This document shows positions 2,579 to 47,708 of a stretch of 64,000 nucleotides of DNA, piece after piece; position 1 is the first letter of the stretch; each line of letters begins with the position of its first letter. This DNA comes from Bacilli bacterium (GTDB lineage Bacteria; Bacillota_I; Bacilli_A; RFN20; CAG-826), in assembly GCA_017477255.1 (NCBI GenBank), contig JAFUXB010000002.1, positions 182,474-246,473 on the forward strand, written 5' to 3'. The position numbers were made by a program, and so were the translations under genes. The notes beneath the pieces were generated by a model. That model was not told where the DNA came from. It ran no database searches and was given only the letters and a program-made list of their open reading frames with translations.

Positions 2579-3340
2579 TTAATTTAAACCTAATTTAGTT
2601 AAGAATTCTTCTTCAGTAAAATCAGTACCAAAATCTTCACTAAACCACTGAATTATTTCTTTATAATTATGCTCACCTAAACCATCATTTAATAATGAAT
2701 AATATTCTTCTATAACACATTTATTATTTTTAAAAGGTATAAGTGAAATAGCATGCTCACTTGGATATGTAAAATTTAAATGATCATATTTATAGTCTCT
2801 GGTCCATTTTATTATTTCACTTATATTTTGATAGCTAAAAGTATAAATAGAATCAACATCTTCAAAAAAGGCATTAATTCTATTTTCTTGTTCTTTAATT
2901 TTATTTAATACTATTTCTCTTTTTTCTTTAGTTAAATCAACTAAAGAAAAACTTAATGGTCCATAGCCTTTATAAAGTTTAATTTGTGCTCTATTATATT
3001 CTTTTTTAATAAAATCACTATAATTATCACCAACTAAATCTTTTGTTTCTAAATCATATATTGTACCAGCATCACTAAAATTAAAAATGAGGAATGCATC
3101 AGTTTCTTTAAATAAATAATGACAATTACAATATTCATGTAATTTATATTCTAATAAAATATTTTTAATATTATTAAGTTTTATTAAGGTTTTATTGCGT
3201 TGATATTCACCTTTGTAATATATTCGTGGTCCTGCTTCTTCATATACATAACAAGTAGGATCTCTATCACAATTAAGCCCACAAGAAAAACATAACGAAG
3301 TTAAACAAAGAAAAGTAAATGTAATTAAAGATTTTTTCAT
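2579..3340 (-). CDS. lipoprotein, paralog A of a duplicated pair (Cys-motif EYCNCHYLF), unknown function
   Basis: 253 aa. N-terminus MKKSLITFTFLCLTSLCFSCG. The C-terminal 18 aa (DFGTDFTEEEFLTKLGLN) are identical to the 3671..4444 product. Flanking DNA is also duplicated. Confidence 0.85.
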   Translation of the reverse strand: MKKSLITFTFLCLTSLCFSCGLNCDRDPTCYVYEEAGPRIYYKGEYQRNKTLIKLNNIKNILLEYKLHEYCNCHYLFKETDAFLIFNFSDAGTIYDLETKDLVGDNYSDFIKKEYNRAQIKLYKGYGPLSFSLVDLTKEKREIVLNKIKEQENRINAFFEDVDSIYTFSYQNISEIIKWTRDYKYDHLNFTYPSEHAISLIPFKNNKCVIEEYYSLLNDGLGEHNYKEIIQWFSEDFGTDFTEEEFLTKLGLN

Positions 3341-3640: not shown

Positions 3641-4505
3641 TAAATAATGGGTTTTTACTTAAAACTAATATTAATTTAAACCTAATTTAGTTAAGAATTC
3701 TTCTTCAGTAAAATCAGTACCAAAGTCTTCATAAAAATAATTAAATGTATGACCATCATCATGATCATATATAGCATCTTTCAATAATGAATAATACTCA
3801 TCAATTACACATTTATTATTTCTAAAAGGAATTAATTGGGCAACATCAAATGTACTTACATGCAATATAAGATTATTATCATCGGGATTCTTATAATATT
3901 TTTTAGTGTTAATTAAATAATTGATATCAGAATGTTGTAATGAATAAACAAAATCTAAACTATTAAAAAATTCATTTATTTTACTCTCATGTTCTTTAAT
4001 TTCATTTAATACTCTTTCTTTTTCCTTTTTAGATAGGCCAACTAAAGAATAATTAAGAGTTTTACCGAACAGATAAGGGTCAGAATCTAATTTAATACCT
4101 TCAAATGATGAATTTAAATCATTATATGTATCGTCATTTATTAAACCTCTTGCTTCAATATCATATATTTTCTTTGTATTTTCAAAAACATAAAACAAGC
4201 TTACTGTTGTTGTTTTATATAATATCTCACAATTACAATATTCTTTATATTTATATTCTAAGCTTGCACTTTTAAAAGACGTTAATTTAAAAGCAGTTTT
4301 ACATTCTAGATATTCATTTTTGTCATAACGATCAGGATCGGCTATATCCACAAGAACACATGGTTGAAATCCACAAAGTTTTCCACATGAAAAAGATAAA
4401 GGCAATAAGTTAACAATTAATAATGGAATTAAGCTCTTTTTCATAATTTCTCTTCTTTCATTATATAAGACAATTTAAAAATGGAAAAGTGCTCAAAAAA
4501 ATGAA
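3598..4505. repeat. about 0.9-kb tandem segmental duplication (copy 2; copy 1 is 2506..3412)
   Basis: The 5' and 3' flanks are near-identical. 2521-2640 matches 3611-3730 and 3341-3412 matches 4445-4510. The coding regions are divergent paralogs. Confidence 0.7.
3671..4444 (-). CDS. lipoprotein, paralog B of duplicated pair (Cys-motif EYCNCEILY)
   Basis: 257 aa. N-terminus MKKSLIPLLIVNLLPLSFSCG. Shares its C-terminus and several internal blocks (LIPF(K/R)NNKCVI(E/D)EYYSLL) with 2579..3340. Confidence 0.85.
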   Translation of the reverse strand: MKKSLIPLLIVNLLPLSFSCGKLCGFQPCVLVDIADPDRYDKNEYLECKTAFKLTSFKSASLEYKYKEYCNCEILYKTTTVSLFYVFENTKKIYDIEARGLINDDTYNDLNSSFEGIKLDSDPYLFGKTLNYSLVGLSKKEKERVLNEIKEHESKINEFFNSLDFVYSLQHSDINYLINTKKYYKNPDDNNLILHVSTFDVAQLIPFRNNKCVIDEYYSLLKDAIYDHDDGHTFNYFYEDFGTDFTEEEFLTKLGLN

Positions 4506-5182: not shown

Positions 5183-5273
5183 AGTATACATAATAAAAAT
5201 CACGAACTTTAGTTGTTAACTAAAAGTTGCGTGATTGAAATTTTAAGAAAATAATGGGGATTTAGAAGGTTTT
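5183..5273 (-). repeat. 91-bp direct repeat copy A with embedded terminator hairpin (5199-5235)
   Basis: agtatacataataaaaATCACGAACTTTAGTTgttaacTAAAAGTTGCGTGATtgaaattttaagaaaataatgggga... Matches 7653-7744 with about 4 mismatches. On the minus strand the imperfect palindrome is followed by TTTTATTATG. Lies 3' of the RloB-like gene. Confidence 0.75.
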
Positions 5274-5299: not shown

Positions 5300-5920
5300 C
5301 TATTTAAATTTTTTTAGTATCTCGTTTATCCAACTACTGTCAGAGGACTCAAATTTATTCAAAAACATTAAAAAATTTGTGCTAGGTATATCTTTTATGT
5401 TACTAGAAATTTTCGATAAATTATTTTTAAATAAATCAAGAGAGTTATAATTTATTTTGTTTATTAACTGGTCGATTTGTTCATTTTTTGCAGAATAGTT
5501 TTTAATACCAGTTAATTGTTCTACTATTTTAGCGTTTGTTTTTTTGCCTACATTTTTCAATTTAACTTCACCAAAATGAGATAAAATAATTTGTAGTGTA
5601 ACCGGATTAGAATAGATAAACACTTCTAAAGAATCTTTTTTATTTTTAAAAAAATATTCACCAAATGAATTCAAAAAACTTAAAAATTGAGAACTATTAT
5701 TATCTCCATCACAAAAAACTAAAATCAAATCATAATATCCTTTTTGGAACTCATATTGATACCTAGCAAAAATTTTTCCATTTCCCTTTACATTTATAGC
5801 TTCAGCAAAATTATAGACTTCTTTATTTATGTTTGGAAAAGACAAAATTTTATCAATATAGGGTTTTTCTTCGTTTCCCTCAGCTAAAATTAGTATATTT
5901 CTCCTCCTTGTTTCACTCAT
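5300..5920 (-). CDS. RloB-like (Toprim-like, DUF4276/RloB family) protein, partner of the upstream AAA ATPase
   Basis: 206 aa. N-terminus RRRNILILAEGNEEKPYIDKI resembles the RloB consensus ILIVCEGEKTE. Overlaps the ATPase gene by 8 nt, indicating an operon. Confidence 0.55.
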   Translation of the reverse strand: MSETRRRNILILAEGNEEKPYIDKILSFPNINKEVYNFAEAINVKGNGKIFARYQYEFQKGYYDLILVFCDGDNNSSQFLSFLNSFGEYFFKNKKDSLEVFIYSNPVTLQIILSHFGEVKLKNVGKKTNAKIVEQLTGIKNYSAKNEQIDQLINKINYNSLDLFKNNLSKISSNIKDIPSTNFLMFLNKFESSDSSWINEILKKFK

Positions 5921-7163
5921 TATTTATTTCCTCAAGAGACGAAAATAAGTCAGGGGATGGAATTGCTCCAAATTGTCCCTTTAAATAATATTCAGAAATA
6001 TCTTCATCTCCTCTAATTCCGTTATTACTTCTTGAAGTAAAACTAGACATTCTTTTTACAATACTAGTGTTTTTATTTGTTAAATCAATTAAATAAATCT
6101 GATCTTTTCTAAATAATTGTTTAAAATTCAAGAGTAAGACATCATGCGTTGTAAAAACTAATTGCGCTTTTGTGTTTAATAAATTATTAAACATTGAAGC
6201 GATAGATCTAGTAATTATATGATGTAACGAACTTTCGATTTCATCTATAAATAATGTTTTTCCATTATAAAGAGCATCATAAATATACCCAGATAATGCA
6301 ATTAATTTCATAGTTCCTACCGATTCAAAGAAAATAGAAGGAACTCTATAACCATTATGTTTACTGGAAAATTTCAAAAATTCTTTAGAGAATGATGGTG
6401 AAGAAATAACTCTATTAATTTTATCAGATAAATCTTTGTCACTTACAATACTATCGTTAAAGCCAAATTCTTCTATATGTAAATCACAATTTTTTACGAA
6501 TGCTTGTATAAATTTTCTTGCTTTTTCATCATTTTGCATAAAGTTTATAGTTTTTGTAATATCAATTGGGTGATTCATCTCTATAAATAATAACGAATTT
6601 GCAAAATCTATATAGTCTTTTTTAATTTTTTTAATAAATTCATTATTTAAATCATTTAAAATTATTAAAACAGGGAACGATCTAGAAAAAGAATCGTAAT
6701 TTTTAATTTTAAATTCTTTATCATAAATAATATTGTTTTCTTTTCGTTTAAATATCGCTTTGTTTAAAGATTTATTATCTTCGTCTGTATTTAAAATTAA
6801 TTCTTCAGATTCATAAAGTTTTGTTTTATTATTATATGCAACTTTATAAGTGTAGAATCTTTTATTAATATAGTATTCAATTTCAAAAGTTGTTATTGGA
6901 TTATTTTCACTAAAAGCATAAGAAAAATCTTCGTGTGGTTCAGCGAGCATTAATGCTCTTAGCCCTTTAAAAGCTCTAAATAAACAAGTTTTACCAGTAT
7001 TGTTTGGTCCATATACTCCTATTACTTTTAAAATATTTTTTTTCTTAGTTTTAATATAATTAAAATTAAATCTTTTAATATTTCCATTAGCTTGGAAATC
7101 AATTTCAATCTTATTTAAAAACGTTTCAAAATTTTCTACTACTAATCTGCAAATCATAATCAA
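5913..7163 (-). CDS. AAA_21/OLD-type P-loop ATPase (abortive-infection/PARIS/OLD-like ATPase component)
   Basis: 416 aa. N-terminus RLVVENFETFLNKIEIDF plus Walker A VIGVYGPNNTGKTC. C-terminal Walker B and signature block TLFIDEIESSLHHIITRSIASMF, followed by FTTHDVLLL (the D-loop/H-loop of SMC/ABC-like AAA_21). Confidence 0.7.
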   Translation of the reverse strand: MIMICRLVVENFETFLNKIEIDFQANGNIKRFNFNYIKTKKKNILKVIGVYGPNNTGKTCLFRAFKGLRALMLAEPHEDFSYAFSENNPITTFEIEYYINKRFYTYKVAYNNKTKLYESEELILNTDEDNKSLNKAIFKRKENNIIYDKEFKIKNYDSFSRSFPVLIILNDLNNEFIKKIKKDYIDFANSLLFIEMNHPIDITKTINFMQNDEKARKFIQAFVKNCDLHIEEFGFNDSIVSDKDLSDKINRVISSPSFSKEFLKFSSKHNGYRVPSIFFESVGTMKLIALSGYIYDALYNGKTLFIDEIESSLHHIITRSIASMFNNLLNTKAQLVFTTHDVLLLNFKQLFRKDQIYLIDLTNKNTSIVKRMSSFTSRSNNGIRGDEDISEYYLKGQFGAIPSPDLFSSLEEINNE

Positions 7164-7652: not shown

Positions 7653-7744
7653 AGTATACATAATAAAAATCACGAACTTTAGTTGTTAACTAAAAGTTGC
7701 GTGATTAAAATTTTAAGAAAATAATGGGGTTTTGAGGGGTTTTT
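7653..7744 (-). repeat. 91-bp direct repeat copy B with embedded terminator hairpin (7669-7705)
   Basis: Near-identical to 5183-5273. Lies immediately 3' of the giant protein gene, whose stop is at 7763. Confidence 0.75.
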
Positions 7745-7762: not shown

Positions 7763-10700
7763 TTAAGCTACTTCATAGTTATCATTAATAAATTGTTTAA
7801 TAACTTCAATAAGATAATCTAATGTAAAATATCCTTTTCCAATTGGAACTGCTAAATATTCTCCACCCCACCATAAATATTGATCATAAGTAACTAAGTC
7901 TTTGACTAAATTGTAATCTAATGGTCCATATTTTTCTAAATCTTGTTCCATTTTGATAGGGTCATATTTAAATTCTGGAGTAACTTCAAACCAAACATGT
8001 TCATGTAATGTTGGTTCAACAGTTAAAATATTATTTGCTAAATATTGATAATCATACATTGTGTCAATTTCATAATATTCAGTATCTTTATTTTCAACAT
8101 ATGCATCAACAACTCGTTTATATCCTATTGTTGATGTGCCAATATCTGAAAGCAATTTTTTACCTATAAATGAACTATAATTACTAGAATCAATTGTTAC
8201 ATAATCTAATAGTTCTGCATCAAAGAATGATTGTTTCCAAATAGCTTCAACTTTTGATCCATCATCAAATACTACAGTTATAACGTCAGCATTTTGCATA
8301 GTGCCGCTCTCATACCAAATAATTGGCCTATTAACAAATGCACCCTCTTTAAAGCTCCAAGTTTTAACAAGTTCTCCTAACTTAACGTCCTTAATTGCTT
8401 TATAAGAACCGTCTGCCATCGTTACTAAAGTATTTCCAGTAACGCATACACCAGAATTATGCATTATATTAAAATCACAACTATATTCCGTATTATTAAT
8501 GTCTGTTACTTTACATCTCAATACACAAGCATCAGGTTTCTGATTAGTGCGTCCATCAAAATGAATTTTTGTACTTCGTGAACCATCATCATCAATAGTT
8601 GTTTTATTTGCAACCTTTGTTCCAGAATAATCAACCATATATTCTCTTTCTCCTGTTGGACTATAAAAAGTCCATTGAACTTGTGAAATTTGACCATTTG
8701 ATGGCTCCCATTTTAAACTATAAGTAATTGTTGTGTCTGTACTTGTAACTTCTTCGTGATAAGACCAATTTTGTGCAACTGTAATTCCGCTGACTCCATC
8801 ATGTTCACTTGATGTTCCGACAACTGTTTTTGAAGATTTGTTAGTACTACTAGTAATCCAAACCGATGTAACACCGACTAAGCTATCATCTGGAATTACT
8901 TCAGTATTATATGTACCAAAAACTTCACTATGATATGAAGATGTTGCAGTAATAACAACTTGCCCTAAATTAACACCAGTAACTTTGCCTGTTTCATCTA
9001 CAGTTGCAATTGATGTATTGCTTGAAGACCAAATTACGTCCTTATTATAAGCTTTTTCAACATCAATCAAGTTAGCTTTTAATTGAATACTATGATTTAT
9101 ATATAAAGGATCTTTACCATTATCTAATTTCCCAGTAGTACTCTCTACAGTTATAGATTGTACATCAAATTCATTAATACCATTATTGTTAGATGATATA
9201 CTAGGCAAACTATTTATTACACAAAATACTACATTACTAGCATTATTAATGTATGATCTATAAGCATACCTACTAGATGTGCCAAAAACATTGTTGTTAC
9301 CTTTAAAGACATTAACATTATAAATGTTATTTAATAATTCTAATTGAGCATTAGTCACAGAATCGACATGGAGAACTTTTTGAACTCCATTTATTTGCCA
9401 TTGTTCTCCATTGTTAATTACATTTAACTTTGGTTTATTTGGGTTTGGAAAATCGTTTGAATTAAAAAATGTATTCATTCCTATAAGGATTTTCTTTGAA
9501 TTAATCTTTTCTAATGACGATATCGAAAGTTGCTCTCTTATTATTAAGTAATCTTTAATAACAAAAGGCGCGCTTCTTACATCTTGATTCCATGGTTCAT
9601 TGCTCTCTACGATATCTGACGACGAATAAATAATGTTTGCTGAATCGTTGCAATATACATTTCCACCAATTTTTTGCATGGTAATCTTTCCACCATCCTC
9701 AACGATACAATTTGCATTATTTTTAACAGGATAATGAGCTCCACAACTCCATTTTGATGTTGGTCTCTCTCCACTGCTGTTATCAATGAATGTGCTATAT
9801 ACCGTCAATTCTGATCCGTTTAAATCCACGTTATTAGAAACAGCCAAAGATGCTTCAGGTAACAATTTTATTTTTTGATTTAATGTAGAAAATGTTGCTC
9901 TACCACTTTGGTTTGAATTTCTAAGCAAACTAATATTCATTTTATATGAAACAGGGAAAAAACCATTTGCTGTACTTAAAGTCTTTTCAACACCACTAAT
10001 TTTAATCTTAAAGCTAAATGTATTAAGAGAAAAACCACCATAAAATTTTAAATTCATTATTTTTTTATCTTTGTCATATTTTGCTTCCAAATATGAATAA
10101 GTAGAATTGGTAAGTTTAACTAAAGCTGCATTCCCGTTGGATATTATCAAAGAATCATTATTTGCAATAACTTCATCAATTGTTCCAATAATAGGAATTC
10201 CAGTTTGATACACGTATACATTAGAGCACCCATATAATTTAGCATTATATCTAAAGTATGAAGTGCAAAAAATATTTCTAAACTCAATTTGATTAAATGG
10301 TGGAACGCCATATGTATTATTTGCTTCTTCCATACCACTTGCAACAGAAAAACCTCTATAATCGCAAACTACTAAAGGCATATATACTGTTCCATTTGCA
10401 AAATCTATATAACTATTATTATTTTTTACATCTTCTTCTATATAACCATAACAATGTGTTATTGCAGTACTTGAATTTTGGATTATTGCTGCTCCATGTT
10501 TTAATAAAAAACGAGAATACGAAAAACCAGTATAACTAATTAATGAGGAGTTTTGGTTTGTTCCAGAATAAAGATAACCACTGATTACAAGAGTACCATT
10601 ATTAATTAATGTTTTTCCACTCTCTATTTCTACTGTAGTTCTTAAATAATTCGTTGAATGATTAATAGCATCTTTATCGGTACTTCCGAGGTTTCTGCTA

Positions 10701-11140
10701 TCTTTCCACATTGATTTAATGTAAGTTTCAAGTGTTTCCTGATTATTAACACTGTCAATATTATTTTTATCTGTTGGCAAAATTAAAGTAACGCCTTGTT
10801 TAATTTCACAATTATCTTTTATTTTATATGTAACGGAATCTACAGAAATTTTATTATTTACTGAATGATAATTTTGTTTTTTTGGTGGTATTGTAACAAC
10901 AATATCACCACTATTAGCACTTTTTAAAGCTCCTTCAATAGTTGGAAAATATATTTTGTTAGATCCAGCAATATAAGCTACAGGCTCCTGAACGCTGCTT
11001 GTATATGTTTCATTAGTACTATTAGCTGTATCATTTTGATTATCTCCAGCATTCCAACTAGCATAAGAAACTTTAGGCATTAATCCTAAAGAAATAAATG
11101 CAAACATAAAAAATGCTAAAAGTTTTTTAAACCACTTCAT
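7763..11140 (-). CDS. giant secreted multidomain protein 1 (ASW-type SipW-cognate-like signal peptide; Big_2; C-terminal Hint/BIL autoprocessing domain)
   Basis: 1125 aa. N-terminus MKWFKKLLAFFMFAFISLGLMPKVSYASWNAGDN. Big_2 block IQLKANLIDVEKAYNKDVIWSSSNTSIATVDETGKVTGVNLGQVVITATS. Hint block A CVTGNTLVTMADGSYKAIKDVKLGELV. The conserved C-terminal tail is shared with 20554..24099. Start overlaps the stop of 11140..11757 (TAATG). RBS AAGGAG. Confidence 0.85.
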   Translation of the reverse strand: MKWFKKLLAFFMFAFISLGLMPKVSYASWNAGDNQNDTANSTNETYTSSVQEPVAYIAGSNKIYFPTIEGALKSANSGDIVVTIPPKKQNYHSVNNKISVDSVTYKIKDNCEIKQGVTLILPTDKNNIDSVNNQETLETYIKSMWKDSRNLGSTDKDAINHSTNYLRTTVEIESGKTLINNGTLVISGYLYSGTNQNSSLISYTGFSYSRFLLKHGAAIIQNSSTAITHCYGYIEEDVKNNNSYIDFANGTVYMPLVVCDYRGFSVASGMEEANNTYGVPPFNQIEFRNIFCTSYFRYNAKLYGCSNVYVYQTGIPIIGTIDEVIANNDSLIISNGNAALVKLTNSTYSYLEAKYDKDKKIMNLKFYGGFSLNTFSFKIKISGVEKTLSTANGFFPVSYKMNISLLRNSNQSGRATFSTLNQKIKLLPEASLAVSNNVDLNGSELTVYSTFIDNSSGERPTSKWSCGAHYPVKNNANCIVEDGGKITMQKIGGNVYCNDSANIIYSSSDIVESNEPWNQDVRSAPFVIKDYLIIREQLSISSLEKINSKKILIGMNTFFNSNDFPNPNKPKLNVINNGEQWQINGVQKVLHVDSVTNAQLELLNNIYNVNVFKGNNNVFGTSSRYAYRSYINNASNVVFCVINSLPSISSNNNGINEFDVQSITVESTTGKLDNGKDPLYINHSIQLKANLIDVEKAYNKDVIWSSSNTSIATVDETGKVTGVNLGQVVITATSSYHSEVFGTYNTEVIPDDSLVGVTSVWITSSTNKSSKTVVGTSSEHDGVSGITVAQNWSYHEEVTSTDTTITYSLKWEPSNGQISQVQWTFYSPTGEREYMVDYSGTKVANKTTIDDDGSRSTKIHFDGRTNQKPDACVLRCKVTDINNTEYSCDFNIMHNSGVCVTGNTLVTMADGSYKAIKDVKLGELVKTWSFKEGAFVNRPIIWYESGTMQNADVITVVFDDGSKVEAIWKQSFFDAELLDYVTIDSSNYSSFIGKKLLSDIGTSTIGYKRVVDAYVENKDTEYYEIDTMYDYQYLANNILTVEPTLHEHVWFEVTPEFKYDPIKMEQDLEKYGPLDYNLVKDLVTYDQYLWWGGEYLAVPIGKGYFTLDYLIEVIKQFINDNYEVA

Positions 11141-11757
11141 TATGCATTCTCCTTAGGGGTAAATGTAATATTAAAATTAGCAGAGGCTAAATTAGGAAAA
11201 CTTGATAAAGATCCAGTCCATTTTAAATTTAGACTAAAATCAAAGCTAAAATCAGCATCCGTATTTGTACATGTAATAACAAATGATGTTGTAATTGCTT
11301 CTCCATCTACTGGATCAGTATCATTAACGCTAAAATTTGTACTAGTTAATGACATTGAGCTGGATGAAAAACCATTAGGATTTAATCCATTTGGTAAAGC
11401 AGTTGATAAACTAACATCTAATTTGAAAGATTTTGTGTTTCTATAGCTTGTAAAGCATGATTTTGCATTCGCTGTATTAACTAAGCATGTGCCAGTTAAA
11501 TCAACGTTATCAGCGTAAATTCCATCATTAACAAAGCCATATCCAGTTGCATATTCAAAATTTCCTAATGAAGAAATTGTAATTACATCAAGAGCTTCGC
11601 CAGTTCCTCCTGTAATTACATCTCCAACACTTAAATCAACAGTCATATTATTAGTTGCCTGTGTAGCTACTGCCCACGTTGAAAAACCAAGTCCTACTAA
11701 GCTAATAATAGAAACTGGACATAAAACAACAAGTAACTTTCTTCCTATCTTTTTCAT
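11140..11757 (-). CDS. TasA/camelysin-like secreted protein 1 with SipW-cognate-type signal peptide
   Basis: 205 aa. N-terminus MKKIGRKLLVVLCPVSIISLVGLGFSTWAVATQ aligns to the B. subtilis TasA signal region (LALVGGGTWAAFND). The mature part starts TVDLSVG, compare TasA SGTLDLS. Translationally coupled to the giant gene. Confidence 0.6.
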   Translation of the reverse strand: MKKIGRKLLVVLCPVSIISLVGLGFSTWAVATQATNNMTVDLSVGDVITGGTGEALDVITISSLGNFEYATGYGFVNDGIYADNVDLTGTCLVNTANAKSCFTSYRNTKSFKLDVSLSTALPNGLNPNGFSSSSMSLTSTNFSVNDTDPVDGEAITTSFVITCTNTDADFSFDFSLNLKWTGSLSSFPNLASANFNITFTPKENA

Positions 11758-11765
11758 ATATGAGA

Positions 11766-11817
11766 AAACGCAGGCGTTTCGTTTAGAGTTTTGAGTTTAA
11801 AGAGTTTAAAACGCCTG
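11766..11817 (-). promoter_or_regulatory. inverted-repeat-flanked leader element immediately upstream of the TasA-like start codon
   Basis: GCAGGCGTTT (11770-11779) and AAACGCCTGC (11808-11817) are exact reverse complements. They enclose tagagttttgagtttaaagagttt. The left arm itself forms the palindrome AAACGCAGGCGTTT. Confidence 0.5.
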
Positions 11818-11827
11818 CTAATAATAT

Positions 11828-11860
11828 GTGTATCTTTTTATAAATATAAAAAGGATACAC
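11828..11860. promoter_or_regulatory. hairpin-forming inverted repeat in the operon leader
   Basis: GTGTATCTTTTT ataaatat AAAAAGGATACAC: 12-bp arms with one bulge. Confidence 0.45.
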
Positions 11861-11870
11861 TTATATAATA

Positions 11871-11889
11871 GAGAGAGAGAGAGAGAGAG
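11871..11889. repeat. (GA)9.5 dinucleotide microsatellite
   Basis: gagagagagagagagagag, located about 115 bp upstream of the operon start codon at 11757. Confidence 0.9.
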
Positions 11890-12095
11890 TCAAGCACTTT
11901 CGAAAAAGAGTGCTAATTTCTTCGATTACTTCTACTATTTATTTTTTCTATAAAAAAAGATTATTAGAACTTTAAATTGTTTAATAATCTTTAAGCTAAT
12001 AAATGATTACTACTTATTGTTTTTGTTAATAATCTGAGAAATCTAAAGTGCACTTTATTTTACTCGGATTTTAAACATTTATAATACCCAATTGT

Positions 12096-12190
12096 GACTT
12101 ACTGAAAGATTTTGCTAAAATCAATAAAATTTTTCAGTATACTGAAAGATTTTTCAATATTTATAAAAATTGTTCAGTATAGTGAAAGAT
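12096..12190. promoter_or_regulatory. three about 40-bp-spaced repeats of ACTGAAAGATTTT including a perfect 14-bp palindrome TTCAGTATACTGAA (putative operator array)
   Basis: gacttACTGAAAGATTTT (12096-12113). ttTTCAGTATACTGAAAGATTTTT (12131-12155), with the palindrome at 12133-12146. tgTTCAGTATAGTGAAAGATTTTTT (12171-12196), with a near-palindrome at 12173-12186. Confidence 0.55.
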
Positions 12191-12214
12191 TTTTTAATCA
12201 AATTAGCAAAATAA

Positions 12215-12245
12215 AAAGACCTAATATGGGTATTAGATCTCTTCA
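12215..12245 (-). terminator. rho-independent terminator of the 12259..14067 gene
   Basis: AGACCTAATA tggg TATTAGATCT: 10-bp stem with one mismatch. Preceded on the plus strand by aaaataaaaa, which is a T-run on the minus strand. Confidence 0.6.
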
Positions 12246-12258
12246 TTTTAAGTTACTA

Positions 12259-14067
12259 TTACTTTTTATGGCCTAAGAAAATAATAACCGATTGCGCAAT
12301 TCCTGCTATTCCAAGTACAAATGGTAATCCACAAGATAATTTAATGTCTTTATTGCTGACCCAATCATTAAATTTCTCGATGGTAGACATTGTTGGATCA
12401 ATATTGCTGACATATAATTCTTTAAATTGTCTAATAATAAAGAATAAGAATATAGAACCAATTAAACAAACAACAGCTGATGAAATAATTAAAACTTTTC
12501 TATAAAGATCTTCTTCTATAAATAAATGAGCAAATACATTAGTTAAACCAGCAACTAAAATCATAATAATTCCTGCTCTAATTAAATACAATGGTCTATA
12601 AGATACAAAACTAACAACTACAGAATCACCTCTTTTTACATTAGATGTAGTTCCCCAAATTACGCCATTATAAGTCAGTACACTATTAGATGATTTTAGA
12701 CTAAATGAAGCAACAAACGATAATGCAAAAATCAGCAATGCTATTCCTAATGCAATTAATGGTAATTTTGATAAATATCTTCTCATAATATTTGACTCCT
12801 TATTTTTATTTTCTTCTTTTTCTTTCTTTTTAAATTCTCTATATTCTTTTCTTAAAATTTTTAATTCTTTTCTTAACTCTTTTAATCTAAGTTTGCATTC
12901 TTTTCTTGCTTTCCTATCTTTAATAACTTTAATAATCATTATTACAAATAAAGCAAGATTTAATACTTGCAATATATATGCGATCCATACAATATCTACT
13001 GGTTCTATCGAATAAATTCCTGTTAAATATATGTGACTCCTACCTATTCTTCCAGGACCAAACACAAAGATAAGTGTAAAGAATAATACAATTGATGAGG
13101 TAAATAACAATGATTTATATAAGCTGATTTCAGCATATTGATTCTTTGTTTCTACAATTTTATTTTTACATTCAGCGATTTTTTGTTTTATATCATTATC
13201 TAATAAAGATAATTTTTTATTCTTGTTTTCAATATAAAAATACAAGAATAATAACATAATTCCTATTATTAAAATTGGTAATGTATAAATATATAATGGG
13301 CTTTCAAAAAGTACATTTTTATAAGTAATATCAGTAGTAATTAATCTTACATATAGGTGAAATGAAACAGCGCTAAATATCAAACCAATATGTAAGCATA
13401 AATTAATTAAATCTATATGTTTTTTTCTTAAAAAGTGTATTACTAAGCACAATAAATATATACTCATGAAGCTAAATAAATAAGGTAGGTGATCAAAAAA
13501 TGTTCCTTCAAAAAAGCTGGTATCTCTTCCAAAATTTATTACAGATACATAGAGAAATTGTGGATTTACATATAAAGCAAAATGTAAAAATGCTCCAAAA
13601 CCAACTAAAACTATTTTACTTATTATTTCTTTCTTGTTTAATTCATTAGAAATAACTTCTTCATTTTGTAATTTATTAAATTTAAACACTTTAAAGATAT
13701 AAATTCCTAAAGAAGCCGATACTAATAAACCATACAAAATTAACGAAATAATGCTAGTTATTGCAGAAAGTTCAATAAAAAATGAAATCGTAAAACTACA
13801 AAATAGTGTTAATAAAACTCTACTAAGAAAATCTCCTTTATATTTCTTATTTCCTTTTTTATAAAATAAGATAAGTAAAATTATTGAAGTTATTAAAATT
13901 ACAATTGATAAAATTGCAACTAGTCCTCCATGATACCTATGTGATCCGGTTTCAATAATATCAATAAATATCCCTTTTAGAGTTCCCATCATTGAACCAT
14001 GTATATTTAATATATATAAAAGAACTGTAAATGAGATTAAAATTAAAGACCAAAATAAATTAATCAT
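12259..14067 (-). CDS. polytopic membrane protein with a central Lys/Arg-rich coiled-coil segment, unknown function
   Basis: 602 aa. More than 10 hydrophobic helices. Charged segment KDRKARKECKLRLKELRKELKILRKEYREFKKKEKEENKNK. Confidence 0.8.
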   Translation of the reverse strand: MINLFWSLILISFTVLLYILNIHGSMMGTLKGIFIDIIETGSHRYHGGLVAILSIVILITSIILLILFYKKGNKKYKGDFLSRVLLTLFCSFTISFFIELSAITSIISLILYGLLVSASLGIYIFKVFKFNKLQNEEVISNELNKKEIISKIVLVGFGAFLHFALYVNPQFLYVSVINFGRDTSFFEGTFFDHLPYLFSFMSIYLLCLVIHFLRKKHIDLINLCLHIGLIFSAVSFHLYVRLITTDITYKNVLFESPLYIYTLPILIIGIMLLFLYFYIENKNKKLSLLDNDIKQKIAECKNKIVETKNQYAEISLYKSLLFTSSIVLFFTLIFVFGPGRIGRSHIYLTGIYSIEPVDIVWIAYILQVLNLALFVIMIIKVIKDRKARKECKLRLKELRKELKILRKEYREFKKKEKEENKNKESNIMRRYLSKLPLIALGIALLIFALSFVASFSLKSSNSVLTYNGVIWGTTSNVKRGDSVVVSFVSYRPLYLIRAGIIMILVAGLTNVFAHLFIEEDLYRKVLIISSAVVCLIGSIFLFFIIRQFKELYVSNIDPTMSTIEKFNDWVSNKDIKLSCGLPFVLGIAGIAQSVIIFLGHKK

Positions 14068-14119
14068 ATTTATATTTTACCTACAAAGAATGCTATAAAC
14101 AAGCATTCAAAAATCATTA

Positions 14120-14698
14120 TTATTTTAAATAATCTCTTATATCTAATAAGAAATAAGTATAATCAAGATATCCTAAATTAATATCGCTATAAATATTTAT
14201 TTTCTTTTCTTCTTCATCTATTTCTGTATTATATTTTTCATACTCACTTAACTTTGATAATACTTTTTTAACATTTACAAAGGCTTCGTTAAAATCTTTA
14301 TAATACTTCTTTTCTCCAATACTAATTAGTTCTGGGAATGAATCATAGCTTGTAGTTACAAATGTTGAAATGAAAAATATATTTTCATTTTCTTCTACAT
14401 TTAGTTCAATAATTTTCCAATATAAATGAAGATCATTTTCATTTAATGAATCTTTATCATGATAATTTTTATCAATAAATTCTTCGCCGAAGCTTTCAGC
14501 TTCATCAATTAAATATTCTAAATCGTTTTCACGAACAATATTTTCTTTTAAACTAATCATTTTATTAAATACATCCATTTTATTTGTTGATGCTTTAATA
14601 ACTCTAACGTTAGCTTCAACTTTTTCATTCCATTCATAATCAATAGTAATGTTATTTTCTACTAAAATAAAAATCTTTTTCATTAAATTATCCCTCAT
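14120..14698 (-). CDS. acidic cytoplasmic protein, unknown function
   Basis: 192-aa ORF in an operon-like arrangement. No recognisable motifs. Confidence 0.6.
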   Translation of the reverse strand: MRDNLMKKIFILVENNITIDYEWNEKVEANVRVIKASTNKMDVFNKMISLKENIVRENDLEYLIDEAESFGEEFIDKNYHDKDSLNENDLHLYWKIIELNVEENENIFFISTFVTTSYDSFPELISIGEKKYYKDFNEAFVNVKKVLSKLSEYEKYNTEIDEEEKKINIYSDINLGYLDYTYFLLDIRDYLK

Positions 14699-14800
14699 TT
14701 ATGCCTTTTAATAATTAAATATGCTTTTATTTTAGTATTAATAACTATTAATTTTTAGCATTCAAAAAATCTTTTAAAAATTATTTACCATTGTTTTAAT

Positions 14801-14830
14801 AACTAAAAAAGGTTCAGTAATTCGAACCTT
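14801..14830 (-). terminator. rho-independent terminator overlapping the last codons of 14814..15764
   Basis: aaaaaAGGTTCagtaattcGAACCTTtctttt: 7-bp stem flanked by an A-run and a T-run. Confidence 0.55.
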
Positions 14831-15764
14831 TCTTTTGAATAATCATTACAATATGCTGATTATAATCTCCAAATTTAGAACCAAATAAGTTTAATCCACC
14901 TCTATTTTTAGCATTTTCTTTAACGCCTAATTTAAATGTAATTGTATCTTTTTCATTAAGTTTTAAATCTTTTAAAGTAACACTTGATACTTTAATTTCA
15001 TTAATAAAACTTCCTTCTTCAGTTATTTTAACGTTTTCTAAAATTCCATAAGAAGTATTGCCTTTCCACCAAAATGGAGTATATTTACCAGCTCTATCTC
15101 CAAAATCTCCAATTGAAGTAAAATAACCTATATCTTTACCATTAACTTCAAAAAATATATCACTAGGCCAATTATGATTATAACCTGGAGATTCACTACA
15201 TAATTCTAAAGAAAATGAAATTGATTGGATTTCATCAACGTTTTTTGATTTAATTGGTATTTCATATTCTAAATATCCATAATCAAACCAAATAAGTTGA
15301 GCTTTAAATCTATCACTTTCATAAAAGCAATTAATATTATCTCTTTCTCCAATATATCCTTCTTCTGAAATCATTCCACATAATTTATTAACTTTAAAAT
15401 TTTTATAAGACCCTATTAAAATATCTACTATTTCATTGTGTTTTGGATAAATTGGATTATTTTTAGTTAAATTAATATGAATTTCTTCAAATTGACGAGA
15501 TACAATTTTTCCTTGTCCACTACTATTTGAATCTTTAATAACAGATATTAATCCAGTTTTAAGTAAAATAGAAACATCTTCAGATACACTAGATAAAGGT
15601 GCATCAAGTTCAAAAGCGATATTTTTAATACTTGATGGCCCTTTTTTAGAAAGTAAATTTAAAATATCTCTTCTTCTTTTATTCGATAAAGCTTTAAAAA
15701 CTTTATCACATTTTAAAGAATCTTTAAGTGATAAATTAAAAACTTTTTTATAATCAATTGCCAT
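14814..15764 (-). CDS. ArsR-type winged-helix regulator with an uncharacterised C-terminal domain
   Basis: 316 aa. N-terminus FKALSNKRRRDILNLLSKKGPSSIKNIAFELDAPLSSVSEDVSILLKTGLISV is an ArsR/SmtB-like HTH. Lies immediately upstream of the GH127-like gene. Confidence 0.65.
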   Translation of the reverse strand: MAIDYKKVFNLSLKDSLKCDKVFKALSNKRRRDILNLLSKKGPSSIKNIAFELDAPLSSVSEDVSILLKTGLISVIKDSNSSGQGKIVSRQFEEIHINLTKNNPIYPKHNEIVDILIGSYKNFKVNKLCGMISEEGYIGERDNINCFYESDRFKAQLIWFDYGYLEYEIPIKSKNVDEIQSISFSLELCSESPGYNHNWPSDIFFEVNGKDIGYFTSIGDFGDRAGKYTPFWWKGNTSYGILENVKITEEGSFINEIKVSSVTLKDLKLNEKDTITFKLGVKENAKNRGGLNLFGSKFGDYNQHIVMIIQKKGSNY

Positions 15765-15788
15765 ATAAATATTATATATAATTTTTAA

Positions 15789-18416
15789 TTAGAATAGTGG
15801 ATTTTTCCATATATCAATTGGATCTAAAACTACTGGATCAATGCCATTAATTATAAACCAACTATAATATGAGCTAGGACTTGACCCTCCATTATATTTA
15901 CCAGCACTAGCAAAATCGACAAGTCTAACAAAATTTCCATTATAAGGAACATCAATATAAGCTAAACAGTTTATAGTGTTTCCATTTTGTACTTCTAATT
16001 TTTCAAGATTTGATGCATTTAATACTATATTTTTTGAAAATAAAACTTGAGGACAATATTTATTTAAATAATATTCATCTAATGTAAATAAAATTGGTCC
16101 ATAATATAAGGATGCATAGCCTGATTGAGAACGTTCTCCTAACCAAGTTGAAAAATGTAAATCTAAATTAAGTTCGATTTCATCTCCATTTTTCCATACT
16201 TTATCTATTTCATAATATTCATTAAATGTAGCACTATGAGTTTTAGAATCATATTTAACAATTGACTCAAAACTCCATGATGGAATTCTTAATTTTAATT
16301 TAAATGGAGTTGGTTTTTCTAAACCTTCTATAGTTATTTTAATATTTCCGTTTAATGGATAAGACGTTACTTCTTTTATAGTAACACTAGCGCCATTTAC
16401 ACTAGTTTTAATAGTAGAATTACCATAATAATTTAAATATAAAGAAGGTCCATCAGTTAAGCATGCCCATTCAACAATTTGCCCAATTCCACGTGCAAAA
16501 TTTGCTTGGCAACAATTCATATCAGGTGAACCTGAATTAAATTGGAATGATATATCTTGTTGTGAACTTACTCTTCTTCCATCATATCCTCCAGATAATC
16601 CTCTAATACCATTCATAGGAGTATTATAAGAACAATATTTATCGTCATCTAATTGTGCACCTAATATTCCATTAAAATAACTTCTTTCAAGTTCATCTAA
16701 TACTTCTACTTTTTTAGAATATTTATAAAATTCATTAGTAAAAGCACACCAAGCAATTGTACAACAAGTTTCAATTACTCCATCTTTATAAGGATCACCA
16801 ATTGCTCCTTCATTTGTAGTAAATCCACCTGTATTATGGATATCTGTAGATTGAATATCGTACCAAATTTGTTCTAAAACGTTGTAATATTCTTCGTTTT
16901 TAGTTTCTTCAAATAAAATACCTAAAGTCATAATCATGTGTAAAACTTCCCATCTAGCACTAGATGAACGATAGAAATTTCCACCTCTAAGAGCAGTTTT
17001 ATACCATCCACTTTGATCTTGACAATCCTGCATTATTATTCTTTCTGCTTCATTTAAATATTTTTCTTCTTTATTAACTTGATACATTAAAGCATAAGCA
17101 TGAGCTATTGCTCTATTTGTTTCAAATCCACCTTTTACTAAATAACTTCTATCTTTAAAAGTTTCATAGATTGCATCAAGACATTTTTTAGAAATAGTTA
17201 AAGCTTTTTCATTATTTGTTAATTTATACCACTCTAAAAGTCCTACAACTGCGTGATATTGATTCCATAAATCCCAGTTAGCTGAACCTATTGAATATCT
17301 AGATTGACCTTTAAATACACCTAAATATCCATCTTCTCCTTGAGCTTCTTCTAACTCATTAATAATTTCAGTTGCGGCATTAAATAATTCTTCATCTTTA
17401 GTTGCTTTATAAGAAAAACTAATTCCAGTTAATAGTTTTCCTACAAATTCTCCATACCGTGCTAATCCAGAAGGTTGTTCCATAGGATCATCTATACTTC
17501 TTTCTCTTAATAAATTAATATCCCAAATAACTTTATAAGTGTCACTAGTTCCCGTGTTTATTGGTAAATCATTTCCAGCAACACTACCAACAATTGCAAA
17601 ATCAGCTAATCTAAATGTTTTATTTAATGAAGTTGATGATCCTTTTATTGCTATTTGAAATTGAGCAATACATGAAGAATCTATAATTCTATTTCCACCT
17701 TCACACCAATAACATTCATAATAATCTTTATTAAAAGGTAAAGCTACATATCCTTCAAAATTAGCAGGAATAGAAACAAATCCGCCTTCACTAATACTTG
17801 CTTTTATAGCTTCACCATTACTTTTATATAAATTAACTTCTTTTCCATCGATTAATTTATATGATTCTCTTCCAACACTATTATCTTCAAAGCAAAGTCT
17901 AAGACCAGTTGTAGCTCCTATTTCACTATTATCAACATATACCCAAAGTTCTTTAATCCCTTGCCAACTAGTAATAGCATTAATATCGTTAACAAATCTA
18001 AAATCTCTATCTCCAAAACTAGTTGGAAGTGATTTTAATTTAAAACCAATATAGTTTTTATCATTCTTTTTAACTACATCAATATCATAATATCCATCAA
18101 CACCAAAGTAGTCTTGACCTAATACTTCACTAAGTGAAGATGTATTACTATTTTCATTTGCTTTTTTTATTTGAGTAATAATATTTGGGTTATTTTTGTA
18201 GGCACTTTTTTGCCAATATTTAATATTATTTTTAAAGTTTTTACCTAAAAACCCTTTTAAATCCAGTTCTTTTATATAATTTTTCAAAACACCAATCTCA
18301 CTTTCTTCATAATCAGTTTTGCTTGTATTTTCTTCAGTTTTATTACTTTTACAAGCATAAGTAAAAACTAATGAACCAATTAATAATAAAGCTGGTACAT
18401 TCTTTTTCTTTTTCAT
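15789..18416 (-). CDS. lipoprotein glycoside hydrolase, GH127/DUF1680-like (beta-L-arabinofuranosidase-like)
   Basis: 875 aa. Lipobox LVFTYAC. The E-x-C motif (IETCCTIAWC) and the CC motif (DMNCCQANFARG) lie about 85 aa apart, as in the Zn site of GH127 HypBA1 (Glu338/Cys340/Cys417/Cys418). The WDLWNQYH block is typical of an (alpha/alpha)6 barrel. Confidence 0.5.
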   Translation of the reverse strand: MKKKKNVPALLLIGSLVFTYACKSNKTEENTSKTDYEESEIGVLKNYIKELDLKGFLGKNFKNNIKYWQKSAYKNNPNIITQIKKANENSNTSSLSEVLGQDYFGVDGYYDIDVVKKNDKNYIGFKLKSLPTSFGDRDFRFVNDINAITSWQGIKELWVYVDNSEIGATTGLRLCFEDNSVGRESYKLIDGKEVNLYKSNGEAIKASISEGGFVSIPANFEGYVALPFNKDYYECYWCEGGNRIIDSSCIAQFQIAIKGSSTSLNKTFRLADFAIVGSVAGNDLPINTGTSDTYKVIWDINLLRERSIDDPMEQPSGLARYGEFVGKLLTGISFSYKATKDEELFNAATEIINELEEAQGEDGYLGVFKGQSRYSIGSANWDLWNQYHAVVGLLEWYKLTNNEKALTISKKCLDAIYETFKDRSYLVKGGFETNRAIAHAYALMYQVNKEEKYLNEAERIIMQDCQDQSGWYKTALRGGNFYRSSSARWEVLHMIMTLGILFEETKNEEYYNVLEQIWYDIQSTDIHNTGGFTTNEGAIGDPYKDGVIETCCTIAWCAFTNEFYKYSKKVEVLDELERSYFNGILGAQLDDDKYCSYNTPMNGIRGLSGGYDGRRVSSQQDISFQFNSGSPDMNCCQANFARGIGQIVEWACLTDGPSLYLNYYGNSTIKTSVNGASVTIKEVTSYPLNGNIKITIEGLEKPTPFKLKLRIPSWSFESIVKYDSKTHSATFNEYYEIDKVWKNGDEIELNLDLHFSTWLGERSQSGYASLYYGPILFTLDEYYLNKYCPQVLFSKNIVLNASNLEKLEVQNGNTINCLAYIDVPYNGNFVRLVDFASAGKYNGGSSPSSYYSWFIINGIDPVVLDPIDIWKNPLF

Positions 18417-18427
18417 TTTTTAGCCTT

Positions 18428-20353
18428 TTAAGAAATTTTTTCTAAATATGATTTAAATTCTTCGCTATTTTTATCTAATATACTTTGAGAACTATATTCA
18501 ACTGAATATTTACTACTTGCTCTATCTGCACATGAAGTAATATTTAAAGCAAATAAACCTCTATATCCAGCTAATTCTTCTTCACTAAATTGACATTTTA
18601 ATACATCATTATAGAAGAAATATGTAGCTTGACCTATTTTTAAAATAGCTACTTTATAACTAAATACATCTCCATCCATTGAATCAGACTTATTACCTAA
18701 TGAAATAAAATATTTTTCTACTCCATTAAATCTAGCGAATAAATTAACTGCTCCACCATTATCTGTTTCAATGTTATACCATGAATTATCACTATTATTA
18801 AAAGCAAATGCTGATGGTCTAATCCAACCTGTTGAATCTTCTAAAACACTAACTCTACCTACATATAACATATCTGTAGGAACAGCTATTTCTGCTTGTC
18901 TAGTTTCTGCACCAGTTTCACTAAATAAAGTTGTATTTTCTATATCTTTATAGATTTTTTCTCTAAATTCAGCGTAATTTGCACTATTTTCATATTCAAA
19001 TTTATTATTAGTTATATTAACTTTAAATTCTTTTCCTTCTTGCCATACATCTGTAGTTGATGTTACTTCTAAGAAGTCAAGACTTGGATAGCCACGAAGT
19101 TCAGCTTCATTAAACCAACAAACAAGTTTTTTATTAAAGAAATAATATGTTTCTTGTCCTTCTTTTAATATATTAACTTCAAAATGAATTTTATCATTAA
19201 CCATTAAATCACTCTTATTTCCTAAAAAGATCCAATATTTTTCTACTCCATTAAATCTAGCAAATAAATGAAGAGCGCCTTCAGCATTCATTTCAATGTT
19301 ATACCAAGAATTATCACTTCCATTGAATGCAAATGCTACGGGTCTAGTTGCGTTATTATCCCATTTTTCTACATCTATAGTTGAACTAAATAACATATTT
19401 TCTTTATTAGCAATATAGCCATATCTATATTTTTGTTCATCACCTTGTTCATGAGCTAAAGTAAAATCAGCAAAATTAACTGTACTTGGATTAACTAATT
19501 CATGATATGCTCCAGTATTTTCTAATTCATAATATACTTTACTTAAATTAATAATATATTCTCCAGCATTTTCTCTATCTGCTGCAGCTGTTACTTCCAT
19601 TGTAGCTAAACTTGCATAGCCTTCCATTTCTTTTTCAGTAAATCCACAAACAGCTTTATTATTGAAATAGAAAGTTGTAGCTTGTCCATTTCTTAATATA
19701 TCAACATCATATTCAATACTATTTTCTACGATATAATCAGCTTTATTTCCTAAATAGATCCAATATTTTTCTATTCCATTAAATCTAGCAAATAAATGCA
19801 TATTACCACTTGCGTCCATTTCAATGTTATACCAAGAATTATCACTAGCATTAAAAGCAAAACTTGAAAGTCTAGTATATTCATTTACATATTTAATAGC
19901 TGAAACATGGAAATGTAATAAATATTTATTAATTGAAGCATCAGGAGTTTTAACAGCATATTTACTTTCTCCTCCTGTAGGACTTGTTAAACTTGCTTCA
20001 ATATAATTAACATGAACATCAAAAGTGGTTTCATGATGAGAAGTTTTAGCTTTAACAGTTGTATCTGAATTAGGTATTAATCCTTTAACTTTACCATCAT
20101 TAATTTCAATAGCATTTCCTTCAAATGTATATGTAACTTCTTCTTCATATTCTTCTTTAGAAAATACTGGATTTAAAATTAATTCAGACATAAATGTTAC
20201 TTCAACATCTTCTAAAGTTAATGTTCCATAATCTATTTTTTGTTCATCAGGATCTGGAATTGGTGTAACAGGGTCATTTTCTTTTTTAGAACAACCAAAA
20301 GTTCCTAAAAGCGTAATTGCTGAAAGCAATACAGTAAAAATTTTCTTTTGCAT
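18428..20353 (-). CDS. lipoprotein with three tandem repeats of about 150 aa (possible lectin/CBM-like repeats)
   Basis: 641 aa. Lipobox LLGTFGC. Three repeats each contain AFAFN(A/G/N)SDNSWYNIE(M/T)...LFARFNG(I/V)EKY(W/F)I.LGNK.D and YFFN.K..C.F.E.E..GY. Confidence 0.8.
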   Translation of the reverse strand: MQKKIFTVLLSAITLLGTFGCSKKENDPVTPIPDPDEQKIDYGTLTLEDVEVTFMSELILNPVFSKEEYEEEVTYTFEGNAIEINDGKVKGLIPNSDTTVKAKTSHHETTFDVHVNYIEASLTSPTGGESKYAVKTPDASINKYLLHFHVSAIKYVNEYTRLSSFAFNASDNSWYNIEMDASGNMHLFARFNGIEKYWIYLGNKADYIVENSIEYDVDILRNGQATTFYFNNKAVCGFTEKEMEGYASLATMEVTAAADRENAGEYIINLSKVYYELENTGAYHELVNPSTVNFADFTLAHEQGDEQKYRYGYIANKENMLFSSTIDVEKWDNNATRPVAFAFNGSDNSWYNIEMNAEGALHLFARFNGVEKYWIFLGNKSDLMVNDKIHFEVNILKEGQETYYFFNKKLVCWFNEAELRGYPSLDFLEVTSTTDVWQEGKEFKVNITNNKFEYENSANYAEFREKIYKDIENTTLFSETGAETRQAEIAVPTDMLYVGRVSVLEDSTGWIRPSAFAFNNSDNSWYNIETDNGGAVNLFARFNGVEKYFISLGNKSDSMDGDVFSYKVAILKIGQATYFFYNDVLKCQFSEEELAGYRGLFALNITSCADRASSKYSVEYSSQSILDKNSEEFKSYLEKIS

Positions 20354-47621: not shown

Positions 47622-47708
47622 ATTTTTATTTTAACCCTTTTCACTTTATTTATTAACATTAATATTAATGAAATTACAATAAAATAAATATTTTATAATA
47701 TTTATAAT

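Follow-up and report, generated by a model that had tools for sequence, protein, structure and literature searches.

A perfect (CT)n tract in a predicted promoter spacer: a probable phase-variation switch of an operon for secreted proteins in an uncultured Bacilli bacterium of the rumen

Here we present an analysis of the 501-bp intergenic gap at positions 11758-12258 of a 64,000-nt stretch of DNA (the window) from the uncultured Bacilli bacterium assembly GCA_017477255.1 (contig JAFUXB010000002.1, positions 182,474 to 246,473). The gap runs from a gene for a protein of 602 amino acids (aa; 12259-14067) to a gene for a 205-aa protein (11140-11757), both on the minus strand. It carries a perfect dinucleotide tract, (CT)n on the coding strand, which occupies the spacer of a predicted promoter and differs in repeat number among near-identical genomes. 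We consider it likely that this tract is a slipped-strand phase-variation switch, placed in the promoter spacer of a secreted-protein operon. The operon, designated operon 1, consists of the small 205-aa gene and, directly after it, a giant 1125-aa gene (7763-11140). Use of the promoter, the transcription start, the ON/OFF effect, its reversibility and the switching rate are what we infer from the arrangement described below.

The repeat tract and its length alleles

Read on the forward strand, the microsatellite is an (AG)10 run, 100% perfect, at 11870-11889, which corresponds to (CT)10 on the coding (minus) strand. A preliminary description of the window, made from the sequence alone, had recognized the tract as (GA)9.5 at 11871-11889; its presence stands and its extent is corrected here. 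The coding strand reads TTGACT CTCTCTCTCTCTCTCTC TATTAT, in which (CT)10 provides the last 2 nt of the -35 hexamer, all 17 nt of the spacer and the initial T of the -10 hexamer. With matches at 10 of 12 positions, TTGACT-17-TATTAT (11893-11865) was the top sigma-70-type site between 11500 and 12500. The spacer measures 15 nt at n=9, 17 nt at n=10 and 19 nt at n=11, 17 nt being reached at n=10 only, and weaker alternative -10 hexamers occur at n=8-9. The tract lies 113-132 nt upstream of the ATG, and from the usual distance between -10 and +1 the transcription start is predicted at about 11858-11860. Elsewhere in the window reading of the sequence revealed an ordinary promoter, TTGCAC-16-TGaTATAAT, which shows that predicted sigma-A-type promoters occur in this genome.

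Several features set the tract apart. It is the only dinucleotide run of at least 6 units in the 64 kb, and the window contains no A/T homopolymer of at least 9 nt despite a G+C content of 26%. Bases inside the spacer of a promoter-like site scoring at least 10/12 make up 1.4% of the window. The tract also has the properties of the promoter-spacer class of simple sequence repeats (SSRs): it is uninterrupted and of slip-prone length (about 8 or more dinucleotide units), it is placed between -35 and -10 hexamers of a promoter that is itself predicted, and its repeat number (n=9, 10 and 11) differs among near-identical genomes. The earlier suggestion that the GA tract might be a phase-variation element is supported and strengthened: the tract is the spacer of the predicted promoter itself and has 9, 10 or 11 units in near-identical assemblies.

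The comparative contigs, from the European Nucleotide Archive (ENA) and Logan, were all found by exact-protein look-up, which returned four contigs with the 205-aa gene; from their labels we take the sources of these contigs (assemblies XIEF21/LIUQ22 and Logan runs) to be ruminant gut metagenomes. Contig L001, which has the window sequence, carries n=10 like the window, as do L004/L018. Two further contigs, L002 and L003, carry n=11. Each differs from the window by 2 substitutions in 9.7 kb (99.96% identical), and the only indel in either is one extra CT unit. They are independent of each other, because they come from different assemblies and have different single-nucleotide polymorphisms. The n=9 allele was found in L011, a Logan contig from the unrelated run SRR33322320 and from a strain 96.6% related, in which the promoter and leader are otherwise almost identical. 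The length heterogeneity whose presence the preliminary description had proposed to look for was therefore seen, as 9, 10 and 11 units across assembly contigs. Three alleles on a near-invariant background are the pattern that a hypermutable contingency locus would be expected to leave.

Additionally, run SRR12529329 yielded an upstream contig that ends exactly in AAAGTGCTTGA(CT)10 and a downstream contig that begins exactly with (CT)10ATTATATAAGT. Given a de Bruijn assembler with k=31, the value that we assume for Logan, these contig ends are the divergence and convergence 31-mers of a bubble between n=10 and n>10. This suggests mixed repeat numbers within the SRR12529329 sample, with stutter as a possible alternative.

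Comparison with the strain of run SRR33322320 (contigs L011:1-3666 and L019:1-6493, against window 11613-11900 and 12232-18736) revealed a mosaic. The flanks are 96.6% identical. Over the ~250 nt that comprise the promoter, all of the leader and the signal-peptide part of the gene (its first ~37 codons), there are 2 differences from L011 (~99% identity), where ~8.6 would be expected at the flank rate (Poisson P ~0.01, by our own arithmetic). The blastn similarity between the window and L011 ends after codon ~37, with none in the body of the cassette, and amino-acid identity to the proteins of that strain is 44% for the small and 36% for the giant protein. Such a mosaic is typical of variable surface-antigen loci, and it fits diversifying selection or cassette exchange behind what would be a fixed, switchable promoter: a conserved putative expression site, made up of promoter, leader and signal peptide, in front of a cassette that has been swapped or has diverged.

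Model, precedents and alternatives

In the proposed mechanism, a tract of n=10 would hold TTGACT and TATTAT at a distance of 17 nt, which suits a sigma-70/sigma-A holoenzyme best, and the operon would be ON. A slip during replication that gains or loses one CT unit would give a spacer of 19 or 15 nt, in which the hexamers would be off in both distance and helical phase, and the operon would be OFF or low; the alternative weaker -10 hexamers at n=8-9 could possibly give an intermediate or graded output. Since such a slip would be reversible and heritable, a clonal population would come to mix expressing and non-expressing cells. The transcript would begin at the foot of a hairpin (hairpin 1) and would bear a second one (hairpin 2) twelve nt before an AUG that lacks a Shine-Dalgarno (SD) sequence. 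An array of palindromes upstream of the promoter and a palindrome of the form AGCACT-N10-AGTGCT at the -35 are candidate sites for conventional regulators, probably layered over the stochastic switch.

Promoter-spacer switches of this type are already known. In the Haemophilus influenzae hifA/hifB fimbrial promoter, (TA)9-11 lies between the -35 and -10 elements, according to that part of PMC2651432 which describes van Ham et al. 1993. The likeness is close: a dinucleotide spacer of about ten units, a change of spacing with each unit gained or lost, a product that is secreted or forms a surface structure, and alleles of 9-11 units. The differences are that hifA/hifB have a TA repeat in overlapping divergent promoters, whereas the repeat here is CT/GA, in a single promoter followed by a long structured 5' untranslated region (UTR), and that the host of hifA/hifB is a proteobacterial pathogen and the present one a rumen commensal of a low-G+C, Gram-positive lineage. 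A CT/GA tract is a polypurine-polypyrimidine mirror repeat and is able to form H-DNA.

Closer in lineage is the vmm promoter of Mycoplasma mycoides, which undergoes dinucleotide indels (PMC2628566). With Vmm, and with the poly-A promoter-spacer switches of the Mycoplasma hyorhinis Vlp proteins, the present locus shares a ruminant-associated host of the low-G+C Bacilli/Mollicutes lineage and a variable surface protein. Vmm is a small lipoprotein, and its repeat is TA. Unlike Vmm, the products here are a secreted beta-sandwich protein and a 1125-aa Big_2/Hint-like protein, and the host uses the standard genetic code, its long open reading frames (ORFs) being read with table 11.

Repeats of the same unit are known from coding-region switches, namely the CT repeats of Helicobacter pylori oipA (PMC10564699) and the (AG)12 of the MmyCI methyltransferase gene of M. 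mycoides capri (PMC3498834). Unit, approximate repeat number and slipped-strand ON/OFF switching are alike; oipA and MmyCI switch by frameshift within the ORF, whereas the tract here is upstream of the ATG and would act on transcription initiation. In H. influenzae hmw1A, a heptanucleotide SSR is transcribed, and a 5'-UTR hairpin and RNase III processing are involved (PMC12721329). That operon, like this one, is of the adhesin type and combines an intergenic SSR with a strongly structured 5' UTR; the hmw1A SSR, however, forms one arm of the hairpin, whereas here the SSR occupies the spacer, and the hairpins, which are free of repeat units, come after it.

The hmw1A precedent raises the alternative that the tract is itself transcribed, within a longer 5' UTR starting at an upstream promoter (e.g. 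at the TATTAT at ~12081-12086), and acts after transcription through repeat-dependent RNA structure or processing. Such a mechanism is known to exist (PMC12721329), other weak promoter-like sites are found in the 500-bp region, and the leader is strongly structured. We nevertheless regard it as very improbable, since a TTGAC-type -35 and a TATTAT -10 bracket the tract exactly, at the optimal 17 nt with n=10, and an AT-rich, terminator-like hairpin followed by T7 intervenes between the upstream region and the tract. Furthermore, on reading the leader fold we noticed no (AG)n-like or G-rich partner for (CU)10, and the hmw type has many more repeat units. There is a similarly small chance that the tract is a neutral intergenic microsatellite, varying in length without effect, and that regulators binding the palindromes alone set expression. 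Microsatellites do vary in length whether functional or not, and the effect of the switch is here predicted. On the other hand, simple repeats are otherwise avoided in this genome, the 64 kb contain no second tract of the kind, and the chance that it should fall in, and fill, the spacer of a strong promoter is ~1%. Moreover, the gene it would control encodes a secreted protein and the locus is mosaic and diversifying, the usual target of a contingency locus.

Several points weigh against the promoter-spacer switch itself. Promoter and start were both predicted from consensus, and hexamer matches come easily in so AT-rich a region (9 found in 1 kb, 6 expected). All three alleles (n=9, 10 and 11) were called from the consensus of assemblies, and the argument from the contig breaks hinges on the k of the assembler. 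Differences in length between samples speak for hypermutability rather than for changed expression or reversible switching. Also, the leader was found in one lineage only, and the homologous gene of relatives lies inside a larger operon and is leaderless, which leaves the promoter without comparative support. A scan of Joint Genome Institute (JGI) metagenomes for promoter plus tract gave 0 matches, a JGI scan for conserved peptides from the signal peptide brought up no relative, and a scan of GTDB genomes with the 23-nt motif of the leader (see below) gave one match, in a cyanobacterial metagenome-assembled genome (MAG), which we take as chance. An alignment of all 14 homologues proved too divergent for seeding a scan.

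SSR-based phase variation has been documented almost entirely in cultured pathogens, among them Haemophilus, Neisseria, Campylobacter, Helicobacter and the mycoplasmas. Here, what would be a textbook promoter-spacer switch, with three natural alleles, was read from metagenome assemblies of an uncultured, low-G+C rumen commensal, an unusual host. This suggests that contingency loci and diversification of surface antigens also occur in gut and rumen commensals, possibly under pressure from phages or host immunity. It further suggests that assembly breaks and indels at SSRs in metagenomes could be mined for contingency loci.

The structured leader and a possible link to operon 2

The features of the region, together with those of a second leader described below, are collected in Table 1.

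Table 1. Coordinates of sequence features in the operon-1 and operon-2 leader regions
Feature	Position in window	Strand	Evidence or remark
Intrinsic terminator of 602-aa gene; 20-bp stem, CCCA loop, U-rich tail	12207-12250	-	-18.5 kcal/mol, z -6.85
Candidate protein-binding array: 2.5 tandem 40-bp units; near-palindromes 12126-12154 and 12165-12193, third half-site 12100-12113	12100-12198	.	repeat/palindrome scan, TRF
AT-rich 11-bp perfect hairpin, then T7; terminator-like	11956-11992	-	-9.1 kcal/mol, z -3.1
Palindrome AGCACT-N10-AGTGCT abutting the -35 (1-nt overlap)	11893-11914	.	one exact copy in window
-35 hexamer TTGACT (predicted)	11888-11893	-	promoter scan
-10 hexamer TATTAT (predicted)	11865-11870	-	promoter scan
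Hairpin 1; 7+7 bp, one bulged C	11828-11860	-	fold, -11.8 kcal/mol
Hairpin 2; 11-bp G+C-rich stem (exact 10-bp inverted repeat plus U.G pair), then GUUUUCUCAUAU, AUG	11770-11818	-	-16.2 kcal/mol
23-nt motif AGAGTTTTGAGTTTAAAGAGTTT, three GAGTTT units	11785-11807	+	antisense to gene; mRNA loop reads AAACUC x3
Start codon of 205-aa gene	11755-11757	-	N-terminal alignment with homologues
Second copy of 23-nt motif, sense, in leader of 221-aa gene	24830-24852	-	motif search
Leader-2 hairpin CUCUUACUUA-AAAC-UAGGUAAGAG	24765-24788	-	fold; sequesters SD-like AGG..GAG once motif is unavailable (in silico)

The whole leader RNA of operon 1 folds better than 200 of 200 shuffled sequences (z -4.6). Hairpin 1, at the extreme 5' end of the predicted transcript, is probably a 5'-terminal stabiliser. 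It had been described as having 12-bp arms; the hairpin is there, with arms of 7+7 bp and a 1-nt bulge. The single substitution of L011 within it changes a C-G pair to U.G and so keeps the pairing, one data point that is compatible with a structure at the RNA level. In hairpin 2, the exact 10-bp inverted repeat (11770-11779 and 11809-11818) encloses 29 nt; the loop is 27 nt long and G-free, and its motif is predicted to be unpaired with a probability of 0.95. Here too the repeat reported before is real; the gap between its end and the ATG is 12 nt (gttttctcatat) rather than 8 nt, and the enclosed motif is 23 nt long. An inverton reading of the inverted repeat was rejected: the segment is 29 bp long and promoterless, and it has one orientation in five assemblies and in L011.

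The absence of a visible SD sequence had also been remarked upon. It is true (the duplex with the anti-SD has an energy of +0.7 kcal/mol), yet unexceptional in this genome: ~10 of 44 window genes, about a quarter, lack an SD, and several look leaderless. Several first genes without an SD have a TATAAT-like hexamer ~7-12 nt before the ATG (15765-15785, 47688-47708 and 41579-41600), an example being tatataatatttatATG before a gene for an HVO_A0114/ArsR-type regulator. This pattern suggests that leaderless mRNAs occur in this organism.

Hairpin 2 might be a cis-acting attenuator or translational control element, governed by a protein or ligand. The stem is stable and G+C-rich and is followed by GUUUUCU, 12 nt before the SD-less AUG, and the three AAACUC repeats of the loop could bind an RNA-binding protein that reads repeats. 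We find this quite unlikely. The loop of 27 nt and the short, interrupted U tract are unlike the real terminators of the window, and the terminator scan gave no call; of the features of an attenuator or intrinsic terminator, the stem part alone is present. No antiterminator pairing appeared in the minimum-free-energy or centroid structures or was noticed on reading, no search having been run for it, and the AUG is unpaired in the fold rather than sequestered. Rfam 15 gave no family: the window had 0 matches at the gathering score, and a permissive search of 11600-12400 returned chance-level matches (E>1) only. Finally, the core motif is inverted at a paralogous operon, which makes a shared cis-RNA function unlikely. 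The preliminary description had favoured an attenuator or translational control structure at this site, a proposal that the unpaired AUG, the long loop, the GUUUUCU tail and the inverted copy of the motif leave weak.

The paralogous operon, operon 2, is a second small and giant pair in the same window (24096-24761, 221 aa, and 20554-24099), at the end of a larger operon. The 23-nt motif has 2 copies in the window, where 0.00 are expected by chance, one in each leader and in opposite orientations relative to the gene. If both are transcribed, the motif RNAs pair at 23 of 23 positions (22 Watson-Crick and 1 G.U), with a duplex energy of -30.8 kcal/mol. In leader 2 alone, the motif is predicted to pair (-18.1 kcal/mol) with the 5' arm of the hairpin that sequesters the SD. 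In silico, the SD of leader 2 (UAGGUAAGAG, just before the AUG) has an unpaired probability of 0.66 when the motif is free and of 0.02 when it is blocked. No variation was seen in the operon-2 leader among 5 assemblies. Between the 221-aa gene and the terminator of a 365-aa gene, a short way upstream of the operon-2 motif, there is also a perfect AT palindrome of 22 bp, ACATATATATTAATATATATGT (24862-24883).

From these folds one could tentatively propose, as an unlikely possibility, that the operon-1 5' UTR acts as an antisense RNA in trans, coupling the phase-variable operon 1 to operon 2. The motif of leader 2, by pairing with the 5' arm, would keep the SD open; once captured by the operon-1 UTR, it would release the arm and the SD hairpin would close. 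A (CT)n tract in the ON state would then cause the operon-1 leader to shut down translation of the small and giant proteins of operon 2. If true, one stochastic DNA switch would produce the mutually exclusive display of two alternative surface structures. A difficulty is that a duplex of two turns inside a closed loop meets topological limits, which counts against antisense action. A covariation test of leader 2 calls for relatives, and a homologue search with the 221-aa protein found none.

It is at least as likely, and by our estimate about an even bet, that the 23-nt motif is an orientation-independent DNA site for a shared regulator, or the relic of a duplication with local inversion, the RNA complementarity being incidental. 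Each copy belongs to the leader of one of two paralogous operons of the small-plus-giant type, sites bound by proteins typically show direct hexamer repeats, and no promoter of at least 9/12 was found at the operon-2 copy or upstream of it in that leader. The position of the operon-1 site, ~50-75 nt downstream of the predicted start and within a G+C-clamped hairpin, would be odd for an activator, although possible for a repressor acting as a roadblock. Against either a DNA site or a relic stands the fact that 23/23 pairing with a lone G.U difference, together with a predicted SD switch, would be a large coincidence. An inversion between the two motif copies, 13 kb apart, was rejected, as its geometry would strip both small genes of a promoter.

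Upstream elements, gene products and genomic setting

Upstream of the promoter, the terminator of the 602-aa gene and the repeated elements that had been described next to it were confirmed (Table 1). The sequence ACTGAAAGATTTT is found three times, at 12101, at 12141 and, with 1 mismatch, at 12181; the spacing is exactly 40/40 bp, and TRF gave a period of 40 with 2.5 copies and a score of 131, the window maximum. Two copies are embedded in 14-bp palindromes, the perfect TTCAGTATACTGAA (12133-12146) and TTCAGTATAGTGAA (12173-12186), each of which is the core of a near-palindrome of ~28-29 bp. No further copies of TTCAGTATACTGAA or TTCAGTATAGTGAA were found in the 64 kb at up to 2 mismatches. 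The palindromes are thus real and confined to this place, and they may be the regulator operators that the preliminary description saw in them. As a CodY box the array was rejected, since AATTTTCWGAAAATT has no match at up to 3 mismatches within 12096-12200. Homologue searches with the 602-aa and 221-aa proteins returned only one 95% variant and the query itself. The contig with the 95% variant of the 602-aa protein ends 27 nt past the stop codon, and the array was compared within the same strain only. Between the array and the promoter, the terminator-like hairpin may insulate the promoter from read-through. The AGCACT-N10-AGTGCT palindrome, which would make only a weak RNA hairpin (z -1.5), may be a regulator site; 1.3 chance sites are expected at up to 2 mismatches, and the window holds no second convincing copy.

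The 205-aa protein is entered at NCBI as a hypothetical protein of 'MAG: Bacilli bacterium', and Pfam and NCBIfam gave no family for it. In its AlphaFold model (mean confidence score pLDDT 81), a helix at the N-terminus is joined by a disordered linker to a beta-sandwich. The top Foldseek matches in the PDB were weak pilin and adhesin beta-sandwiches (E at least 3e-3, TM-score at most 0.33), and TasA was absent among them. The N-terminal hydrophobic segment is kept in homologues, with which the N-terminus aligns. The protein is a putatively secreted beta-sandwich, possibly a fibre subunit. Its identification as TasA/camelysin (Peptidase_M73), in line with the 'TasA-like' label that the operon had been given, was rejected for want of support from Pfam, NCBIfam or Foldseek. 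Together with a Big_2 domain in the partner protein, the helix-linker-sandwich model and the conserved hydrophobic N-terminus mark the controlled gene as a probable surface or secreted determinant, and the uncharacterised pair of small and giant (Big_2/Hint-like) proteins could well form a surface structure that is exposed and selectable.

The giant protein has, besides Big_2, a weak Hint-like match at aa 895-964. Both n=11 contigs, L002 and L003, stop at window ~8051-8088, in the last ~100 codons of the giant gene and just past the Hint-like module. One possible reason is that strains differ in the C-terminal tail, in the manner of those polymorphic toxins in which a Hint domain precedes the toxin tip.

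The minus strand carries nearly all genes of the window, whose G+C content is 23-33%. The homologues of other species (L005-L009) lie within a larger operon, which encodes, in this order, a 12-transmembrane-segment membrane protein, an ~810-aa protein, a Flg_new-repeat protein, and the small and giant proteins. The small gene follows the Flg_new-repeat gene there by ~30-80 nt, so that no leader is available for comparison. Operon 2 has the same gene layout. Operon 1 is a free-standing copy of just the final small and giant genes of the larger operon, with what is probably its own switch. The large operon ending in operon 2 opens with a gene (33154-34317) for an unusual domain combination, in which a response-regulator receiver is joined to an ABC-type ATPase.

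Directly downstream of the giant gene of operon 1, two 92-nt direct repeats (5183-5273 and 7653-7743, 94.6% identical) stand on either side of two genes, one for an AAA_21 (AbiEii/OLD-like) ATPase (5913-7163) and one for a 206-aa protein (5300-5920). The pair looks like an inserted two-gene islet of the defence type. Further along, the adjacent ~255-aa genes at 2579-3340 and 3671-4444 have near-identical 30-nt upstream regions and are likely tandem paralogues.

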